From an uncultured Gammaproteobacteria bacterium (GTDB lineage Bacteria > Patescibacteriota > Microgenomatia > UBA8517), in the NCBI GenBank assembly GCA_964635715.1, contig CAZWNZ010000001.1, positions 10,358 to 74,357 of the forward strand: a stretch of DNA of 64,000 nt. Reading direction: 5' to 3'. The notes beneath the pieces are model-generated. The model ran no database searches. It saw nothing but the letters and a program-made list of their open reading frames with translations, and was not told the origin of the DNA. Positions within the stretch are counted from its first letter, which is position 1. The number at the start of each line of letters is the position of its first letter. Below are positions 719 through 61,423 of the stretch, one piece after another. A program made the position numbers and the translations under genes.

Positions 719-1360
719 TTAAAAACCAACAGTTGCTGTTAGCCCCAGGGGGATCTCCTGAGAATCTGATATTACGGCTCGGACGTAGAGCTTTTTCCCG
801 TCACTCAAAACTTTTGTAGTCTTTCCCTTCAATTCCATTCCCAAACTTGTTATTTTGACTTTTGCTTCCTTTTCCTCCTTGAAGCTTTTTATATCCTTCT
901 CCCCAATCTCAACTTCCACATAGTAGGAGGAGGAGTCAATTATTTTGAAAGAGGAACTGGCGGGAGTGATATTTATGCCGGGAACTACATTGCTATCATC
1001 CATCACTACTCCACCTACAGGAGAAAATAGATCACAGGAGTCCACCGCTGCTTTTGCAAGTTCCACACTTTTAACAGCAGCATTTAGCATTGCCTGTTTT
1101 TCCGTTTTCAGATATTTATCTATTGCCTCAGTTGGAGAGGGATTTTTCTGATTAAATATTTCAAAGTCCGCTCTCACCTTTTCAAAATCCGCCAGTTCTC
1201 TATCCAGTGTTGTTTGGGCAACTTTGCGGTCGAGAGAAGCCAGAAGGTTTCCTTTTCTGACTGTGTCACCGGTAAATTTTTTAACGGAAACAATTTTTCC
1301 TGAAGTTGCAAAACGAACATCAACAATACGCGCTTTTACTACTCCTTTAAAAGTAGTCAT
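719..1360 (-). CDS. HlyD-family membrane-fusion / efflux adaptor protein, apparently lacking the N-terminal TM anchor
   Basis: Split biotinyl-lipoyl hairpins (GKIVSVKKFTGDTVRKGNLLASLD ... SPVGGVVMDDSNVVPGINI) separated by a coiled-coil, followed by a beta-barrel segment. No TM helix at the N-terminus. Confidence 0.55.
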   Translation of the reverse strand: MTTFKGVVKARIVDVRFATSGKIVSVKKFTGDTVRKGNLLASLDRKVAQTTLDRELADFEKVRADFEIFNQKNPSPTEAIDKYLKTEKQAMLNAAVKSVELAKAAVDSCDLFSPVGGVVMDDSNVVPGINITPASSSFKIIDSSSYYVEVEIGEKDIKSFKEEKEAKVKITSLGMELKGKTTKVLSDGKKLYVRAVISDSQEIPLGLTATVGF

Positions 1361-1536: not shown

Positions 1537-1567
1537 TCTTTAACGATGCATTGATGTATGATAAAAG
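1537..1567. repeat. 31-bp direct repeat, 5' copy flanking TrpR-like gene 1 (contains tandem ATGCAT dyads and the gene start codons)
   Basis: tctttaacgatgcattgatgtatgataaaag, near-identical to 1992-2022. Confidence 0.8.
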
Positions 1568-1976
1568 TATGCCACAAGTTTCAAAACGGAGAATAGATCC
1601 AAAAGTTGAGAAAGAACTTCAAAATTCACTGGCCTACATAATTAAAGATTTAAAAACAAAAGATGAGGTTAACGAATTTTTATCGTCAGCTCTTACCGAC
1701 ACTGAAAGAGTGATGGTCGCAAAAAGAGTATTGACCGCATATCTTCTTGAAAATGGAGTTGAAGAAAGCCAAATTGCCCAAACTCTTAAACTAACTAATT
1801 CAACAATAACCCGTTTTAAAATGTGGATCAAATTACATAAAAGTGGCTTTGATCTAGTTTTCAAAAAACTAAAGAAAAAAGGAGTTGAAGACGTTGGGAA
1901 ACAGGTACTTTTAAAAATTCTTAAATACGCTTCGAATGCAGCATTTGGCCGCGTCCCAACACCAAAAATTCCCTAA
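1551..1976 (+). CDS. TrpR/YerC-like helix-turn-helix DNA-binding protein (paralogue 1 of 3)
   Basis: LSSALTDTERVMVAKRVLTAYLLENGVEESQIAQTLKLTNSTITR matches the Trp-repressor helix pattern (LTPxERxxxxxRxxIxxxLL...SxxTIxRGS). True start is probably the ATG at 1554 or 1569. Confidence 0.6.
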   Translation: MMYDKSMPQVSKRRIDPKVEKELQNSLAYIIKDLKTKDEVNEFLSSALTDTERVMVAKRVLTAYLLENGVEESQIAQTLKLTNSTITRFKMWIKLHKSGFDLVFKKLKKKGVEDVGKQVLLKILKYASNAAFGRVPTPKIP

Positions 1977-1991
1977 TAGTTAATTTCCACT

Positions 1992-2022
1992 TCTTTAACG
2001 ATGCATTGATGCATGATAAAAA
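1992..2022. repeat. 31-bp direct repeat, 3' copy flanking TrpR-like gene 1
   Basis: tctttaacgatgcattgatgcatgataaaaa; 29/31 match to 1537-1567. Confidence 0.8.
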
Positions 2023-2482: not shown

Positions 2483-2770
2483 TTACTTTGAAGTTTTGGC
2501 TTTTTTCTCAGAGGTTGATTTTTTAGCCTTGAATTCAGCGTATTTTTGTTTATCTGTCTTCTTTGCATGGAATTTTCCTTTACCACGCATCAAAGGAAGT
2601 CTTTTTAAGAAACTTTTCCTCATCTTCATACCTTCAAAAAGAACTCCAATATGACCCCTGCTTTTTTGTCCTTTTTGTCCACGGCTTGAGGTGTGAGATC
2701 CTTTTCCGGATCCCATTCCACGTCCGAGTCTTTTTTTGCTTTTTGTTACAACTTTCGGTAAATTTGTCAT
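2483..2770 (-). CDS. rplO: 50S ribosomal protein L15, N-terminal domain only (C-terminal domain replaced by a Lys-rich tail)
   Basis: MTNLPKVVTKSKKRLGRGMGSGKGSHTSSRGQKGQKSRGHIGVLFEGMKMRKSFLKRLPLMRGKGKF matches the L15 N-terminus (GRGxGSGxGKTxGRGxKGQKSRSG...FEGGQMPLxRRLPKRGF). The rest is a K-rich tail. No secY downstream. Confidence 0.6.
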   Translation of the reverse strand: MTNLPKVVTKSKKRLGRGMGSGKGSHTSSRGQKGQKSRGHIGVLFEGMKMRKSFLKRLPLMRGKGKFHAKKTDKQKYAEFKAKKSTSEKKAKTSK

Positions 2771-2792
2771 GTTATTTCTCCTTCGATTTCGC

Positions 2793-3284
2793 TCAGGACT
2801 TACGTTTTGTTTCAACTATTCCTGATATTGTTTCGAGTGCTTTTAAGGTTGCGTAAACGTTAGATATTTTATTCTTTGTTCCTAAAATTTTTCCAACTGC
2901 ATCCCTAATTCCGGCAGCTTCCAAAACAACCCTCATCGGTCCCCCTGCAATAATCCCGGATCCGGGAGGTGCTGGTTTCAATAAAATCTTTGCTGCAGAA
3001 AACTTTTCATTCACCGAATAAGGAATCGTTGTCCCCACAAGGGGAACCAAAATCATATTTCTTTTTGCCGCTTCGATAGATTTTCTAATAGCATTCCTTA
3101 CATCTGTAGCTTTGGCAATTCCCACCCCCACTTTTCCTTTTCTGTCGCCAACCACAACAAGAGATGAAAATCTAATTTGATTTCCACCTTTGGTTTTCTT
3201 GGAAATACGGTTTATCTGAACCACTGTTTCCTCAAACTCTTTGGGACCTTGATCGTAATTACTGTTTCTTCTATTAAATGCCAT
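2793..3284 (-). CDS. rpsE: 30S ribosomal protein S5
   Basis: S5 signature (GRxxRFxALVVVGDxxGxVGxGxGKAxEVxxAIxKA...). spc-operon position between L18 and L15; no L30 gene in the 22-nt gap to rplO. Confidence 0.93.
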   Translation of the reverse strand: MAFNRRNSNYDQGPKEFEETVVQINRISKKTKGGNQIRFSSLVVVGDRKGKVGVGIAKATDVRNAIRKSIEAAKRNMILVPLVGTTIPYSVNEKFSAAKILLKPAPPGSGIIAGGPMRVVLEAAGIRDAVGKILGTKNKISNVYATLKALETISGIVETKRKS

Positions 3285-3307: not shown

Positions 3308-3667
3308 TTAGAATTCCAATCCTCCTTTTCTTGCTCCTTCAGCAAGGGCTTTTACCCTTCCATGAAATCTAAAACCATTTCTATCAAAAGTGACTTTCTT
3401 TATTTTCTTAACTAATGCTTTTTTTGCCAACTCTTCACCAACTTTTTCTGCAATTTGGGTTTTGGTTTCTTTGGTTTTCCCTTTAATATGAATGTCCGAA
3501 CAGGCAACTAAAGTTTTTGCCGATAAATCATCCACCAACTGCCCATAGATGTGAGCATTTGAACGGAATACAGAAAGCCTCGGACGATCCGATGTGCCAG
3601 TAATTCTAGCACGAACCCTGGTCTTTCTTTGCATATATCTTTTAGCTTTTAATTGTAAATTTTTCAT
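3308..3667 (-). CDS. rplR: 50S ribosomal protein L18
   Basis: RPRLSVFRSNAHIYGQLVDD motif; operon position. Confidence 0.92.
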   Translation of the reverse strand: MKNLQLKAKRYMQRKTRVRARITGTSDRPRLSVFRSNAHIYGQLVDDLSAKTLVACSDIHIKGKTKETKTQIAEKVGEELAKKALVKKIKKVTFDRNGFRFHGRVKALAEGARKGGLEF

Positions 3668-17896: not shown

Positions 17897-18330
17897 TTAA
17901 AATTTTCTATTTACTAGATGCCTATCTGTGTAAATAAGAACGTTTTGACCTTTGAAATTTAGATTATCTCTCTTTACTTTGAAACCTTGATTTTTTGCAT
18001 AATCAATTAGTGATTCTAACCAATTTACATTTGGTTTTTTAACTAAGGGTTCATCAATTACACAACAGGGTCAACCACGGTTACATCCCAGCCGTTTATA
18101 TTTAACAAAAGTGAAAGCAATCCTTTTCCACCACCAACATCTAAGGCTTTGGTGGGTTTGTATTTTTGGCTAAGCCACATCTGTAAAAGCTGAAAACGAA
18201 ACTTGTTGTTCAATCTTCGTTTTGTATTCATTAATCGGATTATACATTTTTTTAAATAATGAATTATATTATCTATTTTAATATTAATTAGTTCGATGGT
18301 TCGAACTATGGTACTATAAATATATGACAC
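17897..18330 (-). pseudogene. class I SAM-dependent methyltransferase remnant, frameshifted after motif I
   Basis: ORF 18058-18330 ends ...ALDVGGGKGLLSLLLNINGWDVTVVDPVV* (motif I). A second frame continues DEPLVKKPNVNWLESLIDYAKNQGFKVKRDNLNFKGQNVLIYTD... to a stop at 17897-17899. Confidence 0.45.
18289..18309. repeat. 21-bp direct repeat, 5' copy flanking TrpR-like gene 2 (8-4-8 dyad tagttcga-tggt-tcgaacta)
   Basis: tagttcgatggttcgaactat, identical to 18765-18785. Confidence 0.85.
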
Positions 18331-18767
18331 AAGTTTCTAGACATTTTATGAATCCTGATATTGAAAAGCGAGTTTATGAGGTATTTATAGAATCTGTTAA
18401 AAACACCAGAAATTCAAATGAAGTAATTGATTTTTTAAATGACTTACTTTCCCCTGTCGAAAAAATTATGATGGCAAAAAGAGTGGCCGTCGCATTTCTT
18501 TTACTTCAGGATAAATATACCTATGACCAAATTTCCAAAACCGTAAAGGTTAGTAGGGGTACAATTGCAAAAATTCATACCACTTTTGCTCTACAAGGAA
18601 AGGGGTATAGAAAAATTCTGGGAGATATTCTTAAAAGGAAAGTTGCGAAAATTGCATTATCGGAACTATTAGACGCGATAACTCTTCTTCCTCCAAAAGG
18701 TGCAAATCTTGGAGAATGGAAAAAGATGAAACGAAATGACAAATTAAAGAGAGAAAGTCCAATATAG
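18324..18767 (+). CDS. TrpR/YerC-like helix-turn-helix DNA-binding protein (paralogue 2 of 3)
   Basis: FLNDLLSPVEKIMMAKRVAVAFLLLQDKYTYDQISKTVKVSRGTIAKI (TrpR helix pattern). Confidence 0.6.
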   Translation: MTQVSRHFMNPDIEKRVYEVFIESVKNTRNSNEVIDFLNDLLSPVEKIMMAKRVAVAFLLLQDKYTYDQISKTVKVSRGTIAKIHTTFALQGKGYRKILGDILKRKVAKIALSELLDAITLLPPKGANLGEWKKMKRNDKLKRESPI

Positions 18768-18785
18768 TTCGATGGTTCGAACTAT
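18765..18785. repeat. 21-bp direct repeat, 3' copy flanking TrpR-like gene 2 (overlaps its TAG stop)
   Basis: tagttcgatggttcgaactat. Confidence 0.85.
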
Positions 18786-18884
18786 CGAACTACTTCGTGA
18801 GATAATCAACGATTAGATTAATTTAGTCTAATAAAAGAAACTATTAAGAAAATTACTTGAAGTCAATAGCAAAAAATGCCGATT

Positions 18885-28972: not shown

Positions 28973-29234
28973 TCACGTTTCGATTCTTTTGTCGCTTGCC
29001 CGCAAGGGTTCAAGTATCAGGAATCTAGCTACTTAAAAAGCAGCATTCCGAGCACAGTTTAAGTATGCCCAGAGTGCTGCCTTCAAATAGCTTTAGAGCA
29101 AGTTATCTCTTTGAAAGTTAAAGAACTTTTTGGCTAAGCTCAAGGCTATAGCCAAACTCGAATTCCAAGCAAATATAGAATTCAAGTATCCGATAGTATA
29201 ATATATCAGGGGCTAAAAATCCAGTGTATTACTG

Positions 29235-29612
29235 TTACGTAACACTAGTACACTTTGAGGATTGGCGGCTGGGTCGAAAATTATTTTTTTCAAATTTTTT
29301 ACTCCAAATAATACTAACCTCAACAAACCCTTTATTTATTAAATCTTGAGGTAAATTTTTAAAAGGACAACTACCAGCTCTCTCTAATTCACCAATAATC
29401 TTTCTTGCAATAGTAACTTGATTTTCGGTTGATTTTAAAACAGTGGCCATTTCACTAAGATTCAGGCCGGGAATACGCCTATGTTCCCAAAAATGATTTA
29501 CTAAATGAGCCGCACCATTTATATCCATTAATTGATTTTCCGGAAGGTCTTTAAGAAATGAGAGATCGAGTTCTTGTCTGGAATTGTCAGTTTCTTTTGA
29601 TTGCTCTACCAT
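29235..29612 (-). CDS. hypothetical protein, possible helix-turn-helix
   Basis: LNLSEMATVLKSTENQVTIARKIIGELERAG resembles an HTH; no confident family assignment. Confidence 0.3.
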   Translation of the reverse strand: MVEQSKETDNSRQELDLSFLKDLPENQLMDINGAAHLVNHFWEHRRIPGLNLSEMATVLKSTENQVTIARKIIGELERAGSCPFKNLPQDLINKGFVEVSIIWSKKFEKNNFRPSRQSSKCTSVT

Positions 29613-39962: not shown

Positions 39963-40637
39963 TTAAACAAGATTTATTTGTTCCGCTTTCGGAACCTCAT
40001 TTTTCTTATCTTGCCCTTCCGTAGCTTTACGCGAAGGATGGTCTTCCTTCATTTTACGCAATATTTCCTTTAATTGATAGAAGTCATTCTTTTCGGCTTC
40101 CAGAATGCTTCCGTTTCTAAGCGAGGCTGCAGGGTGATACATGGGAATTACAATAAATTTTTTATTATGCCAGGTAATTTCATATTTCTTTCCATGGACC
40201 TGTGAGATGAAAACATTAGGTAAAAACTTAGCCATAGAAAATCTGCCCAAAGTAATTATTACTTCCGGATTTATTATCTCAATAATCTGATCCAGATATT
40301 TGCCGTAAGCTTCAATTTCGTTCGGAAGTGGGTCACGGTTTTCCGGAGGTCTATGGTGAACAATATTTGTAATAAATACTTCTTTCCGTTCCAATCCGGC
40401 AAGAGGAAACAGTTTATCCAAAAGTTTGCCCGCTTGACCGACAAAAGGTTCCCCAATTTTATCTTCATTAAAACCCGGTCCCTCACCGATACAAAGAATT
40501 GAAGTTTCTGTATTTCCTGTACCAAAAACTAGTTTTGTAGCTCCTTTTTTAAGAGGAAGGGTTTCATCTTCATCCATCTTGTCTTTCAATAGGTGTAACA
40601 ATTTGTATCTATTTTTGTTTTTATTGTTTTTTTCCAT
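39963..40637 (-). CDS. udg: uracil-DNA glycosylase, family 4
   Basis: ILCIGEGPGFNEDKIGEPFVGQAGKLLDKL and C-terminal HPAASLRNG motifs. Confidence 0.8.
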   Translation of the reverse strand: MEKNNKNKNRYKLLHLLKDKMDEDETLPLKKGATKLVFGTGNTETSILCIGEGPGFNEDKIGEPFVGQAGKLLDKLFPLAGLERKEVFITNIVHHRPPENRDPLPNEIEAYGKYLDQIIEIINPEVIITLGRFSMAKFLPNVFISQVHGKKYEITWHNKKFIVIPMYHPAASLRNGSILEAEKNDFYQLKEILRKMKEDHPSRKATEGQDKKNEVPKAEQINLV

Positions 40638-40655
40638 AAAATTGATCCTAAATAC

Positions 40656-40679
40656 TACATTACTATATAGTAATGTAGT
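40656..40679. repeat. perfect 24-bp palindrome ctacattactat|atagtaatgtag, same family as those flanking TrpR-like gene 3; orphan copy 16 nt upstream of the udg start
   Basis: Compare cttcaatactatatagtattgaag (49195-49218) and ctacaatactatatagtattgtag (49676-49699). Confidence 0.8.
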
Positions 40680-40685
40680 GGAGTA

Positions 40686-41165
40686 TTATTCTCTCTCGTT
40701 GATAAACTCTACCTTGTTTTTAACCGTGTCATACACTGCAAAGTTTATTCCCATCACCGTTGCTCCGGGACGTATCATTTTGACAGGCGTTTCAACACTT
40801 TCATATTTTGAATGATAATGGCCATTTATTATTAAATCCAATTTTTTACCTCCAAAATATTCCCTATTATCAGATGGTTTATGAGTAATTCCAATACTCC
40901 TTCCACCAATACTAACAATCAAATATTCTTCTCCAAATTGTTTTGCTTTCTTTTTTAAATCACCAACCAGTTCACTATCCACATCTGCATTTCCCAAAAC
41001 TGTATAAAAAGGGATTCCGGAAAGTCTTACCACTTCGGCAGAAGTTGATGTATCCCAATCTCCTGCGTGAATTATGCTGTTTACTCTAATTTTTTTTGCA
41101 AAGCCGGCAATATGCTTAAGATTTGCTATGTTGCCATGACTATCCCCAATGATTAGCACCTTCAT
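40686..41165 (-). CDS. metallophosphoesterase (YfcE-like)
   Basis: MKVLIIGDSHGNI...IHAGDW...GNAD phosphoesterase motifs. Confidence 0.75.
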   Translation of the reverse strand: MKVLIIGDSHGNIANLKHIAGFAKKIRVNSIIHAGDWDTSTSAEVVRLSGIPFYTVLGNADVDSELVGDLKKKAKQFGEEYLIVSIGGRSIGITHKPSDNREYFGGKKLDLIINGHYHSKYESVETPVKMIRPGATVMGINFAVYDTVKNKVEFINERE

Positions 41166-42353: not shown

Positions 42354-44696
42354 TTAGAAGTCTTTCTTCTCGGAGACTAATCTACTGGTTGGAAAATGGG
42401 GCCCACCCGATCTGTCTGAATTTGATGAAAAACCGCTTCTTCTGTCTCCTCCACCGAATCCGCCTCGGGAAACACCCCTGTCTCCACCTCTTGAAAAGCC
42501 GCCCCGGGAACCACCCCTTGAAAATCCACCACGACTTCCTCCACCGAATCCGCCTCGGGAACCACCCCTGTCTCCACCAAAACCTCCGCGTGGCCTTTCT
42601 TCTCTGGGCTTGTCCTTAGTAGGATCCATATTCATTGAAAGATTGATTCTTCCTTGATCGTCAACTTCTTTTACTCTAACTTGAACTTTTTGCCCAATGT
42701 GAACAACATCCCCAGCATCTTTTACAAATCCTTCCTGACCCATGTCAGTTACATGAACCATTCCATCTTTTCCGGGAAGTATATTTACAAAAGCTCCAAA
42801 AGACATCAATCTTACAACTTCTCCTTCATAAATTTCTCCAGCTTTAACTTCTTTTGCAAAACCGGTAACCCAGGCAATTGCCTTCTCCATCTTTTCTGGA
42901 TCTACTCCGGAAACACTAACACCTCCGTCGTCATTTACGTCAACTTGAGTTCCTGTATCCGCCATCAACTTCTTGATATTCTTGCCGCTTGGCCCTATGA
43001 ATTCTCCAATTCTATCAACAGGAATTTTTACAACCTTAATCTTTGGGGCATATTCTGAAACTGTTTTTCGGGATTCTGGAAGAGTTTCAATGATTTTTTT
43101 CATTATCTCGGCCCTTGCCTCTTTTGCTTGTGCAAGTCCCTTTTCCAAAACATCGGAAGTAATATTAAGAGCTTTGCAGTCCATTTGAAGAGCTGTAATA
43201 CCGACATTCGTTCCCGCAACTTTGAAGTCCATGTCTCCATTGAAATCCTCAATTCCCATGAGATCTGTCAAAACTGCAAAATTCTTTTCATCTTCTATAA
43301 TAAGACCCATTGCAATTCCGGCAACAGGGGCCTTAATCGGAACTCCGGCATCCATCAAAGAAAGTGTTGAACCAACAACTGACGCCATTGAAGTGGATCC
43401 ATTTGAACTCATAACTTCAGATACAACTCTTATTGCATAAGGAAACTCTTCCTGTGAAGGAATAACGGGCAAAAGTGCTCGTTCGGCAAGAGCACCATGT
43501 CCAATTTCACGCCTATTTGGTTGCCCAACACGGCCAGTTTCTCCTGTTGCATAAGGAGGCATGGAATAGTGGTGCATATAATGTTTTTCTTCTTCACCTT
43601 CGGCACTTTCCAAAAGCTGTCCCATGGATTCGCTCCCAAGTGTTGCAACTGAAAGAACTTGAGTTTGACCTCTGGAAAATATCGCACTACCATGGGTTCT
43701 TGGTAAAATTCCCACTTCTCCGTTTAATTTCCTAAGTTCGGTTACTTTTCTACCATCCGGTCTTATTCCTTTTTTCAATATTTGTTCTCTTATATAGTCT
43801 TTCTTCATATGATCGACTATTTCTAAAACAAACTTTTTGTCTTCTTCCTTGTCAAACTGAGTTTTTATTGCTTCAACAAATTCTGAGTATTCGTTAGATG
43901 GGCCATCATGATTGGCCATATTCTTAACCAGACCGGCCATTTTGTCTCCAACTAACTTTTTAACTTGATTTTCAAGATCTGCCGAAGGCTTTATCTCCTT
44001 ATAAACTTCTCTTTCTACACCCTTTTCTTTAGCTAGCTCTTCAATCAATTTAAGAACTGCTTTACTTTCTTTTTCAGCAAACTTGATCCCACCAATAATT
44101 TGTTCTTCTGTAACCTCCTTGGCTCCTGCCTCAACCATCAAAACAGCATCCTTGGTTGAAGAAACTGTCAAATCCATCGGTGAAGTTTCAAAATCAGTGG
44201 AAGTTGGATTCACTATATATTTATCATCCTTCATTCCGATAGACAGAGGAGCAATCGGGCCTTTCCAGGGTAGAGGGCTAAGGTGAATTGCGGCACTTCC
44301 CGCAATGGCACCCAATATCTTAGGGTCATTTTCTCCATCAACAGAAAGAACCATAATAACAAGTTGAACTTCTTTTTTATAAGTCTTAGGGAAAAGAGGA
44401 CGAATCGAACGATCGATTAAGCGTCCTGCTAAAATCTCTTCATCTGTTGGTCTACCCTCACGCTTTACCCAGCGGCTGCCTTTAATACGGCCTCCTGCAT
44501 AAAGCCTTTCCTGGTATTCAACAGAAAGTGGAAAATAATCCATTTCCATTTTAAGAGGAGCCACAGCAACAGTAGCTAAAACGACCGTGTCTCCAATGCG
44601 AGCCATTACTTCGCCAGCGGCTTGTTCAGCAAGGTTACCTGTGGTTAAGGTAAGTGTACGTCCACCTAATTCGATGGACTTCTCAATTTTTTTCAT
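42354..44696 (-). CDS. pnp: polynucleotide phosphorylase with C-terminal RGG/RG-repeat tail
   Basis: Two RNase PH domains, KH and S1 (GEIYEGEVVRLMSFGAFVNI...). Tail GGFGGDRGGSRGGFGGGSRGGFSRGGSRGGFSRGGDRGVSRGGFGGGDRR. Confidence 0.93.
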   Translation of the reverse strand: MKKIEKSIELGGRTLTLTTGNLAEQAAGEVMARIGDTVVLATVAVAPLKMEMDYFPLSVEYQERLYAGGRIKGSRWVKREGRPTDEEILAGRLIDRSIRPLFPKTYKKEVQLVIMVLSVDGENDPKILGAIAGSAAIHLSPLPWKGPIAPLSIGMKDDKYIVNPTSTDFETSPMDLTVSSTKDAVLMVEAGAKEVTEEQIIGGIKFAEKESKAVLKLIEELAKEKGVEREVYKEIKPSADLENQVKKLVGDKMAGLVKNMANHDGPSNEYSEFVEAIKTQFDKEEDKKFVLEIVDHMKKDYIREQILKKGIRPDGRKVTELRKLNGEVGILPRTHGSAIFSRGQTQVLSVATLGSESMGQLLESAEGEEEKHYMHHYSMPPYATGETGRVGQPNRREIGHGALAERALLPVIPSQEEFPYAIRVVSEVMSSNGSTSMASVVGSTLSLMDAGVPIKAPVAGIAMGLIIEDEKNFAVLTDLMGIEDFNGDMDFKVAGTNVGITALQMDCKALNITSDVLEKGLAQAKEARAEIMKKIIETLPESRKTVSEYAPKIKVVKIPVDRIGEFIGPSGKNIKKLMADTGTQVDVNDDGGVSVSGVDPEKMEKAIAWVTGFAKEVKAGEIYEGEVVRLMSFGAFVNILPGKDGMVHVTDMGQEGFVKDAGDVVHIGQKVQVRVKEVDDQGRINLSMNMDPTKDKPREERPRGGFGGDRGGSRGGFGGGSRGGFSRGGSRGGFSRGGDRGVSRGGFGGGDRRSGFSSNSDRSGGPHFPTSRLVSEKKDF

Positions 44697-48878: not shown

Positions 48879-49194
48879 AAATCAAATACTCAATTCCAGA
48901 TACAAGTTTAACTCATTAAAGCTAAAAACTCAAGCTACATAAGTAAGTTAATTTTGAGTATTAGTCTTCCCGAACATCTGCTGAAGTTCTTTTTCCGTCG
49001 GGTTTCTTTTTTCCTATTCACATTTTTTCATTAACCTGCAAATAGGACAGTCATCAATAATACAATTATTGCTTGATACCATAATGGCGTCACCTACTTT
49101 TTTACTGGATGTTTTCATCCTACCGTTTATAAATTTATATCATTCAAATCTGCAAATATTCAAGTGATTATTTTTATGATATATTGAATATATA

Positions 49195-49218
49195 CTTCAA
49201 TACTATATAGTATTGAAG
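49195..49218. repeat. perfect 24-bp palindrome cttcaatactat|atagtattgaag, 4 nt upstream of the TrpR-like gene 3 start
   Basis: Self-complementary by inspection. Confidence 0.85.
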
Positions 49219-49222
49219 TGCT

Positions 49223-49672
49223 ATGACTAAAATTTCAAAATTGCCATTAAGATCTGATGTTTGGAATCGGATTTTTGATTTGTTCGTCAGTACCCTATCC
49301 AACCAAAGAGATAAAAAGAAATTATCAAATTTTATTAATGATTTTTTCTCGCCAACTGAAAGAATAATGTTTGCAAAAAGGTTGGCTATTGCGGTTCTGG
49401 TCGCAAAAGGCCAAGATTATCAAAGTATCCACGAAATTTTGAAAGTAAGTCCACCAACTATTGCAAAACTTAGTTTAAGAATCAAATATATGGGGGAGGG
49501 TTTAAACCCTGTTATTAGAGATATTTTTAAGAGTCAGGCGTTGCAAATTATATGGAAAGAAACTGAAGATCTGTTTGATTTGCCAACAAAAGGTAACTTA
49601 AAATCGCCCGAAAGATTTAAAAGAAAACTTCGAAGAGTGAAGCAAATTAATAAAATGAGATCGGAATTTTAA
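49223..49672 (+). CDS. TrpR/YerC-like helix-turn-helix DNA-binding protein (paralogue 3 of 3)
   Basis: FINDFFSPTERIMFAKRLAIAVLVAKGQDYQSIHEILKVSPPTIAKL. Confidence 0.6.
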   Translation: MTKISKLPLRSDVWNRIFDLFVSTLSNQRDKKKLSNFINDFFSPTERIMFAKRLAIAVLVAKGQDYQSIHEILKVSPPTIAKLSLRIKYMGEGLNPVIRDIFKSQALQIIWKETEDLFDLPTKGNLKSPERFKRKLRRVKQINKMRSEF

Positions 49673-49675
49673 CTA

Positions 49676-49704
49676 CTACAATACTATATAGTATTGTAGT
49701 TTTT
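49676..49704 (+). terminator. perfect 24-bp palindrome ctacaatactat|atagtattgtag plus TTTTT; 3' copy of the gene-3 flanking repeat and probable terminator
   Basis: Begins 3 nt after the TAA stop; followed by ttttt at 49700-49704. Confidence 0.6.
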
Positions 49705-60826: not shown

Positions 60827-61423
60827 ATGAAAAAACCTGTTAGCAAAATCGGAACAATTTTAATAATAATAGCCACAGTCATTCTGGCTGGAATTGCGAT
60901 TTTTACAGCCTACAGATTGTATCAACTTAGACAAACCTCTGTCGCACCTAATGTTCCCAGCAGCATGCCAAAGGCTGAAGAATCAACTGCAAGCCCTGCT
61001 CCCACTAGCAATTGTTCCCTATCGTTTACCATATCGACATCCACTCCTACCACTACAGCCACAGCTACAGCTACTGCAACAGCCACAGCAACTGCGACGG
61101 CTACAGCTACTGCAACAGCCACGCCAACTTCATCCGGTACTCCGAACTCTTGCGGTGGAACTTGTGGAAGTAATACTAATTGTGGATCAGGTCTTTACTG
61201 TTATAACGGTTACTGTCGTAATCCATCGTGTTCTAATGAAATAGATTGTGTCTGTCCGACAGGCACCTCTACGGCCACAGCAACTGCGACAGCAAAAAGT
61301 TCCACCCCAACTTCTACACCTGAAGAAGTCACTCTTCCCGAGTCAGGTACAGGCTGGACGACTTTCATGGGTATCGGAGTCGGAATGTTGGTTGTTCTAG
61401 GATCAATTCTTTTAGCTCTCTAA
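60827..61423 (+). CDS. cell-surface protein with (Thr-Ala)n repeat, small Cys-knot module and C-terminal LPESG sorting signal
   Basis: TTATATATATATATATATATATATPT; CGGTCGSNTNCGSGLYCYNGYCRNPSCSNEIDCVCP; C-terminus EEVTLPESGTGWTTFMGIGVGMLVVLGSILLAL. Confidence 0.65.
   Translation: MKKPVSKIGTILIIIATVILAGIAIFTAYRLYQLRQTSVAPNVPSSMPKAEESTASPAPTSNCSLSFTISTSTPTTTATATATATATATATATATATATPTSSGTPNSCGGTCGSNTNCGSGLYCYNGYCRNPSCSNEIDCVCPTGTSTATATATAKSSTPTSTPEEVTLPESGTGWTTFMGIGVGMLVVLGSILLAL

Follow-up and report, generated by a model that had tools for sequence, protein, structure and literature searches.

Why should a small regulatory gene carry the same palindromic sequence at both of its ends? The question is raised by a 64,000-nucleotide stretch of DNA from an uncultured bacterium placed in the Patescibacteriota (contig CAZWNZ010000001.1 of assembly GCA_964635715.1, positions 10,358 to 74,357), here called the window, in which a gene for a TrpR/YerC-like helix-turn-helix (HTH) protein, P1, lies between two copies of a 31-bp sequence that match at 29 of 31 positions (1537-1567, TCTTTAACGATGCATTGATGTATGATAAAAG; 1992-2022, ending GATGCATGATAAAAA). 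A preliminary description, made from the letters alone, had pointed out this repeat and two paralogues, P2 and P3, bracketed in the same manner by sequences of their own, and these observations were borne out. An unbiased repeat search of the whole window returned all three pairs (D4, D5 and D6 for P1, P2 and P3, Table 1), with a chance expectation of 0.02-0.03 matches in the window for the P2 and P3 cores, and tblastn of the window found exactly three paralogues, with pairwise identities of 25-35%, and no fourth. The P2 palindrome is a 26-bp dyad centred on TTCGAA and that of P3 is a perfect 26-mer of the general form ACT(T/A)CAATACTAT·ATAGTATTG(A/T)AGT. The three palindromes differ from each other and each is essentially confined to its own gene; indeed, the long near-perfect palindromes of the window are all of these three types, bar one unrelated 32-bp palindrome at 29223-29254. 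The repeats are thus not generic promoter or terminator sequences shared by many unrelated genes.

Table 1. The three TrpR/YerC-like genes of the window and their palindromes. A raised point marks the centre of a palindrome.
Feature	Position	Strand	Remarks
P1 5' repeat copy (D4)	1537..1567	+	quasi-palindrome, core ATGCAT-TG-ATGTAT; overlaps putative leaderless promoter, TATGAT 1557-1562
P1 gene, 135-aa TrpR/YerC-like HTH protein	1569..1976	+	Pfam PF01371; start moved from 1551
P1 3' repeat copy (D4)	1992..2022	+	begins 16 nt past stop; core exact dyad ATGCAT-TG-ATGCAT
P2 5' copy (D5)	18289..18316	+	hybrid palindrome AGTTCGATGGTTC·GAACTATGGTACT, centre TTCGAA; TACTAT in right arm, -12..-7
P2 gene, 147-aa TrpR/YerC-like protein	18324..18767	+	convergent with rpsG; orthologues hold same position
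P2 3' copy (D5)	18765..18792	+	near-perfect 26-bp palindrome AGTTCGATGGTTC·GAACTATCGAACT, overlaps stop codon
P3 5' copy (D6)	49193..49219	+	perfect 26-bp palindrome ACTTCAATACTAT·ATAGTATTGAAGT; promoter-like TTGAAT-16-TATAGT at 49184-49211
P3 gene, 149-aa TrpR/YerC-like protein	49223..49672	+	between nusA and NUDIX-dnaJ
P3 3' copy (D6)	49674..49700	+	perfect palindrome ACTACAATACTAT·ATAGTATTGTAGT; one compensated pair distinguishes 5' copy
Third P3-type site	40654..40679		perfect 26-bp palindrome ACTACATTACTAT·ATAGTAATGTAGT (ACTACATTACTATATAGTAATGTAGT)

The bracket proved to be a property of the family. We fetched 98 loci of Patescibacteria homologues, many labelled Woesebacteria; these were sought with subgroup alignments, since the three paralogue groups diverge too far for a mixed one. 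Flank statistics were taken from 84 genes with both flanks available, from part of these loci together with the three window genes, a shared flank being an ungapped match scoring at least 14 between the 120 nt upstream of the start codon and the 120 nt downstream of the stop codon. Such a flank is present in 69/84 homologous loci, each of which therefore has two or more cognate putative operators in cis, compared with 5/242 other genes of the same DNA, and it persists down to ~30% protein identity. The shared element is always a palindrome of ~24-30 bp, with its centre most commonly 16 bp upstream of the ATG in the 5' copy and 16 bp downstream of the stop in the 3' copy; 3' centres fall at +15 to +17 in 29 of 62 loci, and in several the stop codon lies inside the left arm. 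Orthologues thus carry the flanking repeats, the P1 copies being kept at both ends in all nine P1-group loci. The one clear single-site member with long flanks, locus L005, has no 3' copy, a 34-bp perfect 5' palindrome, a Shine-Dalgarno leader and a co-directional gene behind.

The palindrome sequence varies by lineage (e.g. ACTTNAATACTATATAGTATTNAAGT, ACTTCGATGTTTCGAAACATCGAAGT, ATGTTACCATGTTTCGAAACATGGTAACAT and TTATCATGCATTAATGCATGATAA), and its type goes with the sequence of the HTH region: SPPTIAK with ACTAT·ATAGT, SDPTIAK with ACTGT·ACAGT, VSLGTVSK with GTTTC·GAAAC, VGLETVSK with GTTCT·AGAAC and LTNSTITR with ATGCATT·AATGCAT. One sequence at both ends of a gene, and three sequences for three paralogues, point to a sequence-specific reader, and the HTH dimer that each gene encodes is the obvious candidate for it.

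The proteins themselves are consistent with this role. All three pass the gathering cut-off of 27 bits for Pfam PF01371, Trp_repressor (P1 39.6, P2 48.4 and P3 41.0 bits), and all three miss the NCBIfam equivalog cut-offs both for YerC/YecD (HisR), TIGR02531 (22.3, 32.9 and 22.5 bits for P1, P2 and P3; cut-off 42.2), and for TrpR, TIGR01321 (20.8, 21.4 and 16.5 bits; cut-off 67.25), which indicates a related but distinct subfamily. The AlphaFold2 model of P1, with a predicted local distance difference test (pLDDT) score of 87.7, has the all-helical, TrpR-like HTH fold. Its best Foldseek matches are 3FRW (template modelling score 0.90 on the target, root-mean-square deviation 1.4), 3G1C, 3KOR and E. 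coli TrpR, and a profile compared with the PDB sequences finds 3frw at 4.8e-15. The model predicts in addition an extra C-terminal helix, residues 109-124, and a tail. The family is large, with 1,875 clusters (50% identity) retrieved by profile search at E <= 1e-10. In Bacillus, YerC is the repressor HisR, whose binding sites are lineage-specific 20-bp palindromes and for which autoregulation is frequent (PMC9413887).

The relation of the 5' copy to the start of its gene had to be corrected. In the preliminary description the P1 repeat carried the initiation codon, TTG 1551 or ATG 1554, but all 89 complete homologues (89/89) start M-[TPSA]-[QK]-[VI]-S at the position equivalent to ATG 1569, where the P1 N-terminus, MPQVSK, matches the conserved MxQVSK start. 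The public 135-aa model of the P1 protein, P0056, has the same start, and in the P1 orthologues of loci L008 and L009 in-frame stop codons separate the ATG of the palindrome from the conserved one. P1 therefore starts at ATG 1569 and the repeat occupies -32 to -2; the starts used as evidence were read individually by eye. The six-codon mini-open reading frame (ORF) in the P1 3' copy is a by-product of the duplication.

None of the three genes has a Shine-Dalgarno sequence, and each has promoter-like hexamers directly before it, TATGAT and TACTAT at -12 to -7 before P1 and P2, respectively, and TTGAAT-16-TATAGT before P3. TTGAC stands just 5' of the palindrome in the 5' copies of several lineages and is rare before 3' copies. 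A -10-like hexamer so near the ATG, together with the lack of a Shine-Dalgarno sequence, points to transcripts without a leader and to a 5' palindrome that spans the core promoter. The palindromic site is thus seen to overlap promoter-like elements of its own gene, and these are its putative promoter; scans with canonical promoter and terminator patterns gave counts at chance level. A leaderless start combined with autorepression is, on these features, a likely arrangement. Many first genes likewise have a TATAAT-like hexamer 6-8 nt upstream of the ATG and lack a Shine-Dalgarno sequence, both in the window (starts at 1360, 12664, 29612 and 41165, all on the minus strand) and among the downstream genes of L008, L009, L021, L070 and L072, which suggests that leaderless mRNAs are frequent in this group of genomes.

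Palindromes at gene ends could also act purely as nucleic-acid structures without any protein, the 3' copy as a terminator or stabiliser hairpin and the 5' copy as a further structure. The P2 and P3 copies do fold strongly as RNA (-14 to -15 kcal/mol, z -3.8 to -5.1), TTTTT directly follows the P3 3' copy, and the divergence both between copies and between orthologues is symmetric and compensatory. However, the P1 copies, conserved as they are in 9/9 loci, fold no better than shuffled sequences (z -0.2 and +0.8), and hairpins need neither the same sequence at both ends of a gene nor different sequences for different paralogues. The four innermost pairs are self-complementary in 94-96% of 124 non-redundant sites; since a hairpin loop would need no pairing at its centre, this central symmetry is a feature of the DNA. 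Arm mismatches show no G.U bias, a T-run (at least five T in the 8 nt after the palindrome) follows only 8/62 3' copies, a pattern scan found no intrinsic terminator at the three 3' copies of the window, Rfam 15 gave no match at gathering score anywhere in the window, and transcription probably starts downstream of the 5' copy. A role as structure alone is therefore very unlikely. The central symmetry, the lack of U-tracts, the unfolded P1 copies and the palindrome types that track the HTH instead argue for DNA sites of the encoded dimer, and that each protein binds its own palindromes is, as judged from these sequences, highly probable. The suggestion that each paralogue has cognate operators at both ends of its gene is in this way supported by the comparison of homologues.

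The two copies are not equivalent. Arm mismatches number 98 in the 5' copies as against 62 in the 3' copies. In eight of nine P1-group loci the right half-site of the 5' copy has a T (ATGTAT, giving TATGAT), and likewise in 8/9 the 3' copy has a C at this place, which makes the ATGCAT dyad exact and weakens the -10-like hexamer. Of the four arms at window P2, three share one type, and the promoter-proximal one retains the ancestral type with TACTAT. These contrasts indicate that the sequence of the 5' copy balances operator against promoter, and that the 3' copy is a purer binding site. Comparison with L092 and L095 further reveals that the left arm of the window P2 5' copy has been replaced by the type of the 3' copy, and that an A-to-G change specific to the window is present only in the two left arms. 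This shared derived arm implies an exchange of sequence between the copies, by gene conversion or unequal crossover.

We propose that each gene encodes a dimeric TrpR/HisR(YerC)-like HTH repressor of a Patescibacteria subfamily and would stand as a single-gene unit of its own, whose mRNA is probably leaderless. The 5' palindrome, centred at ~-16, would cover the spacer and the -10 element of the gene's own promoter, and the gene product bound there would turn its own transcription off by promoter occlusion. The 3' palindrome, centred ~+16 past the stop, would be a second and usually more perfect cognate site without promoter elements, which would keep the repressor near the gene and cooperate with the weaker promoter operator via a ~480-bp loop, so that self-control would be tight and cooperative. 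To this combination, autorepression at the 5' copy with the 3' copy as a high-affinity, looping auxiliary operator, we give about an even chance; looping taken by itself as the role of the 3' copy is a tentative assignment, somewhat short of even.

A regulon search of the fetched flanks (387 kb) gave only five cases with copies of a cognate palindrome beyond the two that bracket a gene. In L056 an extra copy (3488-3514) lies after the stop of the next gene, an aminotransferase gene (+31), and in L077 (3931-3957) after that of an SNase-like gene (+17), the latter copy being followed by TATAAA and an ATG; L087 and L088 have two copies past the regulator's stop. In the window, the third P3-type site (Table 1) is flanked by the stop of a calcineurin-like phosphoesterase gene (40686-41165, minus strand) and the start of a UDG-family gene (39963-40637, minus strand), its centre ~29 bp before the UDG-family ATG and ~+19 after the phosphoesterase stop. 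Its sequence is that of the 5' operator of the P3 orthologues in L013-L016, and it is a candidate additional target of P3.

Several points weigh against the looping repressor. The covariation of HTH and palindrome is confounded by shared ancestry and, because gene and sites are linked, it is supportive and not proof. No helical phasing of the centre-to-centre distances was found (Rayleigh p >= 0.18), a result that is uninformative because phasing is not required at ~480 bp. Differences between the two copies of a gene are concerted on both arms, at 61 pair positions compared with 18.6 expected, 36 of them fully compensatory (in L095, for example, the 5' copy is AGTACCATAGTTC·GAACTATGGTACT and the 3' copy AGTTCGATAGTTC·GAACTATCGAACT). 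Half-site readout by one protein does not predict such two-arm changes, which may stem from the correction of quasi-palindromes by template switching, from selection for forming cruciforms or hairpins, or from a second binder. Looping also leaves unaccounted for both the tight coupling of the 3' copy to the stop codon, overlap included, and the third copies in L077, L056 and the window, each of which closely follows the stop of another gene.

The stop-codon coupling and the third copies fit a protein-dependent boundary better, and this is the main rival explanation. Here the bound 3' copy, and for traffic from outside the 5' copy, would be a roadblock, factor-assisted terminator or insulator that ends the unit's transcript and keeps the RNA polymerase of surrounding operons out, with no contact to the promoter. 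In addition to the locked position of the 3' centre and the third copies at +17, +31 and ~+19 past stops, such a boundary would suit the lack of a canonical intrinsic terminator at these gene ends and the better palindromes of the 3' copies. It would also suit gene orientation, as family genes are opposite in strand to both neighbours in 16/54 cases compared with 20/206 other genes (Fisher p=6e-4; all loci), where a stop signal would prevent head-on read-through. Across loci neighbour orientation is mixed; the three TrpR-like genes of the window are all plus-strand singletons amid a run of minus-strand genes, with convergent neighbours. Yet a roadblock edge 0-3 nt past the stop would, judging from known roadblock footprints, be expected to halt polymerase in the last codons and yield non-stop mRNA; moreover, a co-directional gene with its own promoter follows in 16/62 loci, and L005 stands in an operon without any 3' copy. 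We consider the boundary somewhat unlikely.

The 3' copy could alternatively be the operator of a second, outward promoter that serves the next gene or an antisense RNA into a convergent neighbour. A co-directional ORF starts 13-42 nt past the 3' centre in 8/62 loci, the same geometry as at the regulator's own start, and the third copy of L077 with its TATAAA and ATG, like the third P3-type site of the window at a plausible UDG promoter, would fit this view. Against it, no ORF in the same direction lies within 200 nt at 38/62 loci, and at a further 16 the co-directional ORF has a -10 of its own, well past the palindrome; the neighbours of all three window genes are convergent, TTGAC is rare before 3' copies and the C that weakens the -10-like hexamer is found in the 3' copy of eight of nine P1-group loci. 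An outward promoter is thus very improbable.

A fourth explanation had been put forward in the preliminary description, that these are small repeat-bounded cassettes that insert or recombine, the copies being either recombination sites (dif/pdif- or attC-like) or terminal repeats recognised by the HTH, such that the unit could excise, insert and invert. Some features would agree with this. Where asymmetry permits a call the copies are in direct orientation (20 vs 7, p=0.02), the shared derived left arm of the P2 copies records sequence exchange, the P1 orthologues (64-80% identity) are found in at least five different contexts, and single genes inverted relative to both neighbours are over-represented. 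A weak similarity links the protein to the N-terminal HTH of the IS630 transposase (E=2.5e-5, below cut-off and in the HTH only), and the symmetric -16/+16 geometry would be expected to survive an inversion. However, all nine P2 loci, window included, adjoin rpsG on the side that faces fusA, from which a variable ORF separates them, and in all seven P3 loci, the window among them, nusA and/or dnaJ remain beside the gene with side and strand unchanged (both in L013, L015, L016, L067 and the window); among syntenic orthologues no inversion polymorphism was seen. The sole ORF of the unit is the HTH protein, with no recombinase, transposase or catalytic domain, and searches of phage, plasmid and IMG/VR viral collections with the protein gave no matches. 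Neither a target-site duplication nor an empty site was seen at these loci, each palindrome type has one unit in the window, and tandem copies are rare. The fixed P2 and P3 positions and the lack of matches in the phage and plasmid collections leave mobility unsupported, and the cassette explanation is very unlikely. Tandem family genes were also considered as the origin of the 3' copy, and a second family gene lies nearby at one locus only, L060.

A wider reading would combine several of these elements. In it, the bracket would mark a Patescibacteria regulatory module of a new kind, a leaderless one-gene unit with its product bound at both ends, the operator acting as promoter switch on the 5' side and as protein-dependent boundary on the 3' side, and the copies would exchange sequence and so evolve in concert; the module could then duplicate, flip or relocate with its geometry kept, and the family would provide hundreds of repressor-operator pairs that are orthogonal by nature. 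Taken together this is a doubtful proposition, which we would not expect to hold in full.

The genomic context of the three genes agrees only in part with the earlier claim that each sits where a conserved operon is interrupted. P2 lies between rpsG and fusA with a methyltransferase remnant in the gap, P3 between nusA and NUDIX-dnaJ, and P1 after an L15-like gene plus a 91-aa ORF. The L15-like gene (2483-2815, minus strand; 110 aa) has no Pfam match at E 0.01, and no secY follows it in the window or in L008 (1317-2870); the 91-aa ORF between it and P1 (2023-2298, minus strand) has no family match. The end of the spc operon is rearranged in this lineage. The divergent intergenic region also contains, adjoining the P1 repeat on its 5' side, a separate inverted repeat TAAATATAC-GACT-GTATATTTA (1516-1537) that is not kept in P1 orthologues. 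Efflux genes (MacB/FtsX-ABC-HlyD-type) adjoin P1-group genes in at least two loci, L098 (1133-3877) and the window (719-1360, minus strand), and by ORF sizes possibly in L007 (4018-5948); relative orientations vary, and the proximity may be a functional link or coincidence. In the gap that separates fusA from the P2 gene, each genome has an ORF of its own (window 18058-18231, minus strand; L092 657-1391; L093 982-1419; L094 700-1362). That of the window is a 57-aa N-terminal remnant of an S-adenosylmethionine-dependent methyltransferase (TehB/Methyltransf_23 matches) and probably a pseudogene. In one P3 orthologue at the nusA..NUDIX-dnaJ position (L066/L067; L066 279-566, L067 3001-3288) an internal deletion removes the HTH core, and both palindromes are intact.

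Elsewhere in the window, the unrelated near-palindrome mentioned above, AGTGTATTACTGTTACGTAACACTAGTACACT, overlaps the 3' end of a 125-aa ORF (29235-29612, minus strand) with no Pfam match and an HTH-looking segment; no matching palindrome copy was seen at the 5' end of this ORF. Two coding tandem repeats are unrelated to the palindromes, one at 61037-61306 (12-nt ACAGCNACNGCN periodicity, eight copies of a 36-nt unit) and one at 42447-42578 (three copies of a 42-nt unit).

The arrangement is a concrete and testable regulatory architecture that recurs in a family of ~1,900 protein clusters. Since the probable binding site of each protein occurs twice, at fixed positions, the family offers a large natural table of pairs of HTH variants and operators, usable for a recognition code of the TrpR fold and for orthogonal repressor-operator parts. 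Were the 3' copy to be a protein-dependent boundary, it would also suggest how terminator-poor genomes delimit units that lie head-on inside ribosomal-protein operons. To our knowledge, transcription control in the Candidate Phyla Radiation has hardly been studied.

Among known systems the nearest in fold and family are E. coli TrpR and the Firmicutes HisR (YerC), both PF01371, with the PDB relatives 3FRW, 3G1C and 3KOR. These are dimeric HTH repressors that act on ~20-bp palindromes overlapping promoters, with lineage-specific motifs and frequent autoregulation (PMC9413887). Unlike them, the window proteins fall below the NCBIfam cut-offs, have an extra C-terminal helix and tail and occur as several paralogues per genome, and their palindromes are 24-30 bp long with a second copy right after the stop codon, such as is not reported in PMC9413887. 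Searches of the literature on TrpR-like/YerC proteins of Patescibacteria and on flanking palindromes gave only that HisR study. The pairing of position-locked putative operators around a probably leaderless one-gene unit thus appears undescribed, as far as the searched literature shows.

More distant systems share single aspects of this architecture. Acinetobacter pdif modules, integron cassettes and the terminal repeats of IS630/Tc1 elements all delimit repeat-bounded units, and likewise combine a short gene unit with similar, imperfectly palindromic end sites, to which the weak HTH similarity to IS630 may be added. They differ from the present units, which have no recombinase or transposase domain, keep their synteny in P2 and P3, occur once per palindrome type and are found on no mobile replicon. 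The controller (C) proteins of restriction-modification systems, small dimeric HTH proteins, recognise palindromic boxes at the promoter of their own gene, whose transcripts are often leaderless; these too form a self-contained autoregulatory unit, but C proteins are of an Xre-like family and C-boxes are upstream only, with no 3' copy. Repressors that loop between auxiliary operators are well known, as in lambda CI (OR-OL around cI-rexAB), LacI (O1/O2/O3), GalR (OE/OI) and DeoR. We know of no looping in the TrpR family, nor of a second site after the stop codon described for TrpR. The looping repressors likewise pair an operator at the promoter with a distal cognate one, a few hundred bp away, and in lambda the repressor gene lies between the operator regions. 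In the family described here, by contrast, the distal site is fixed at the stop of the repressor gene itself, and the putative loop would hold exactly one small gene.

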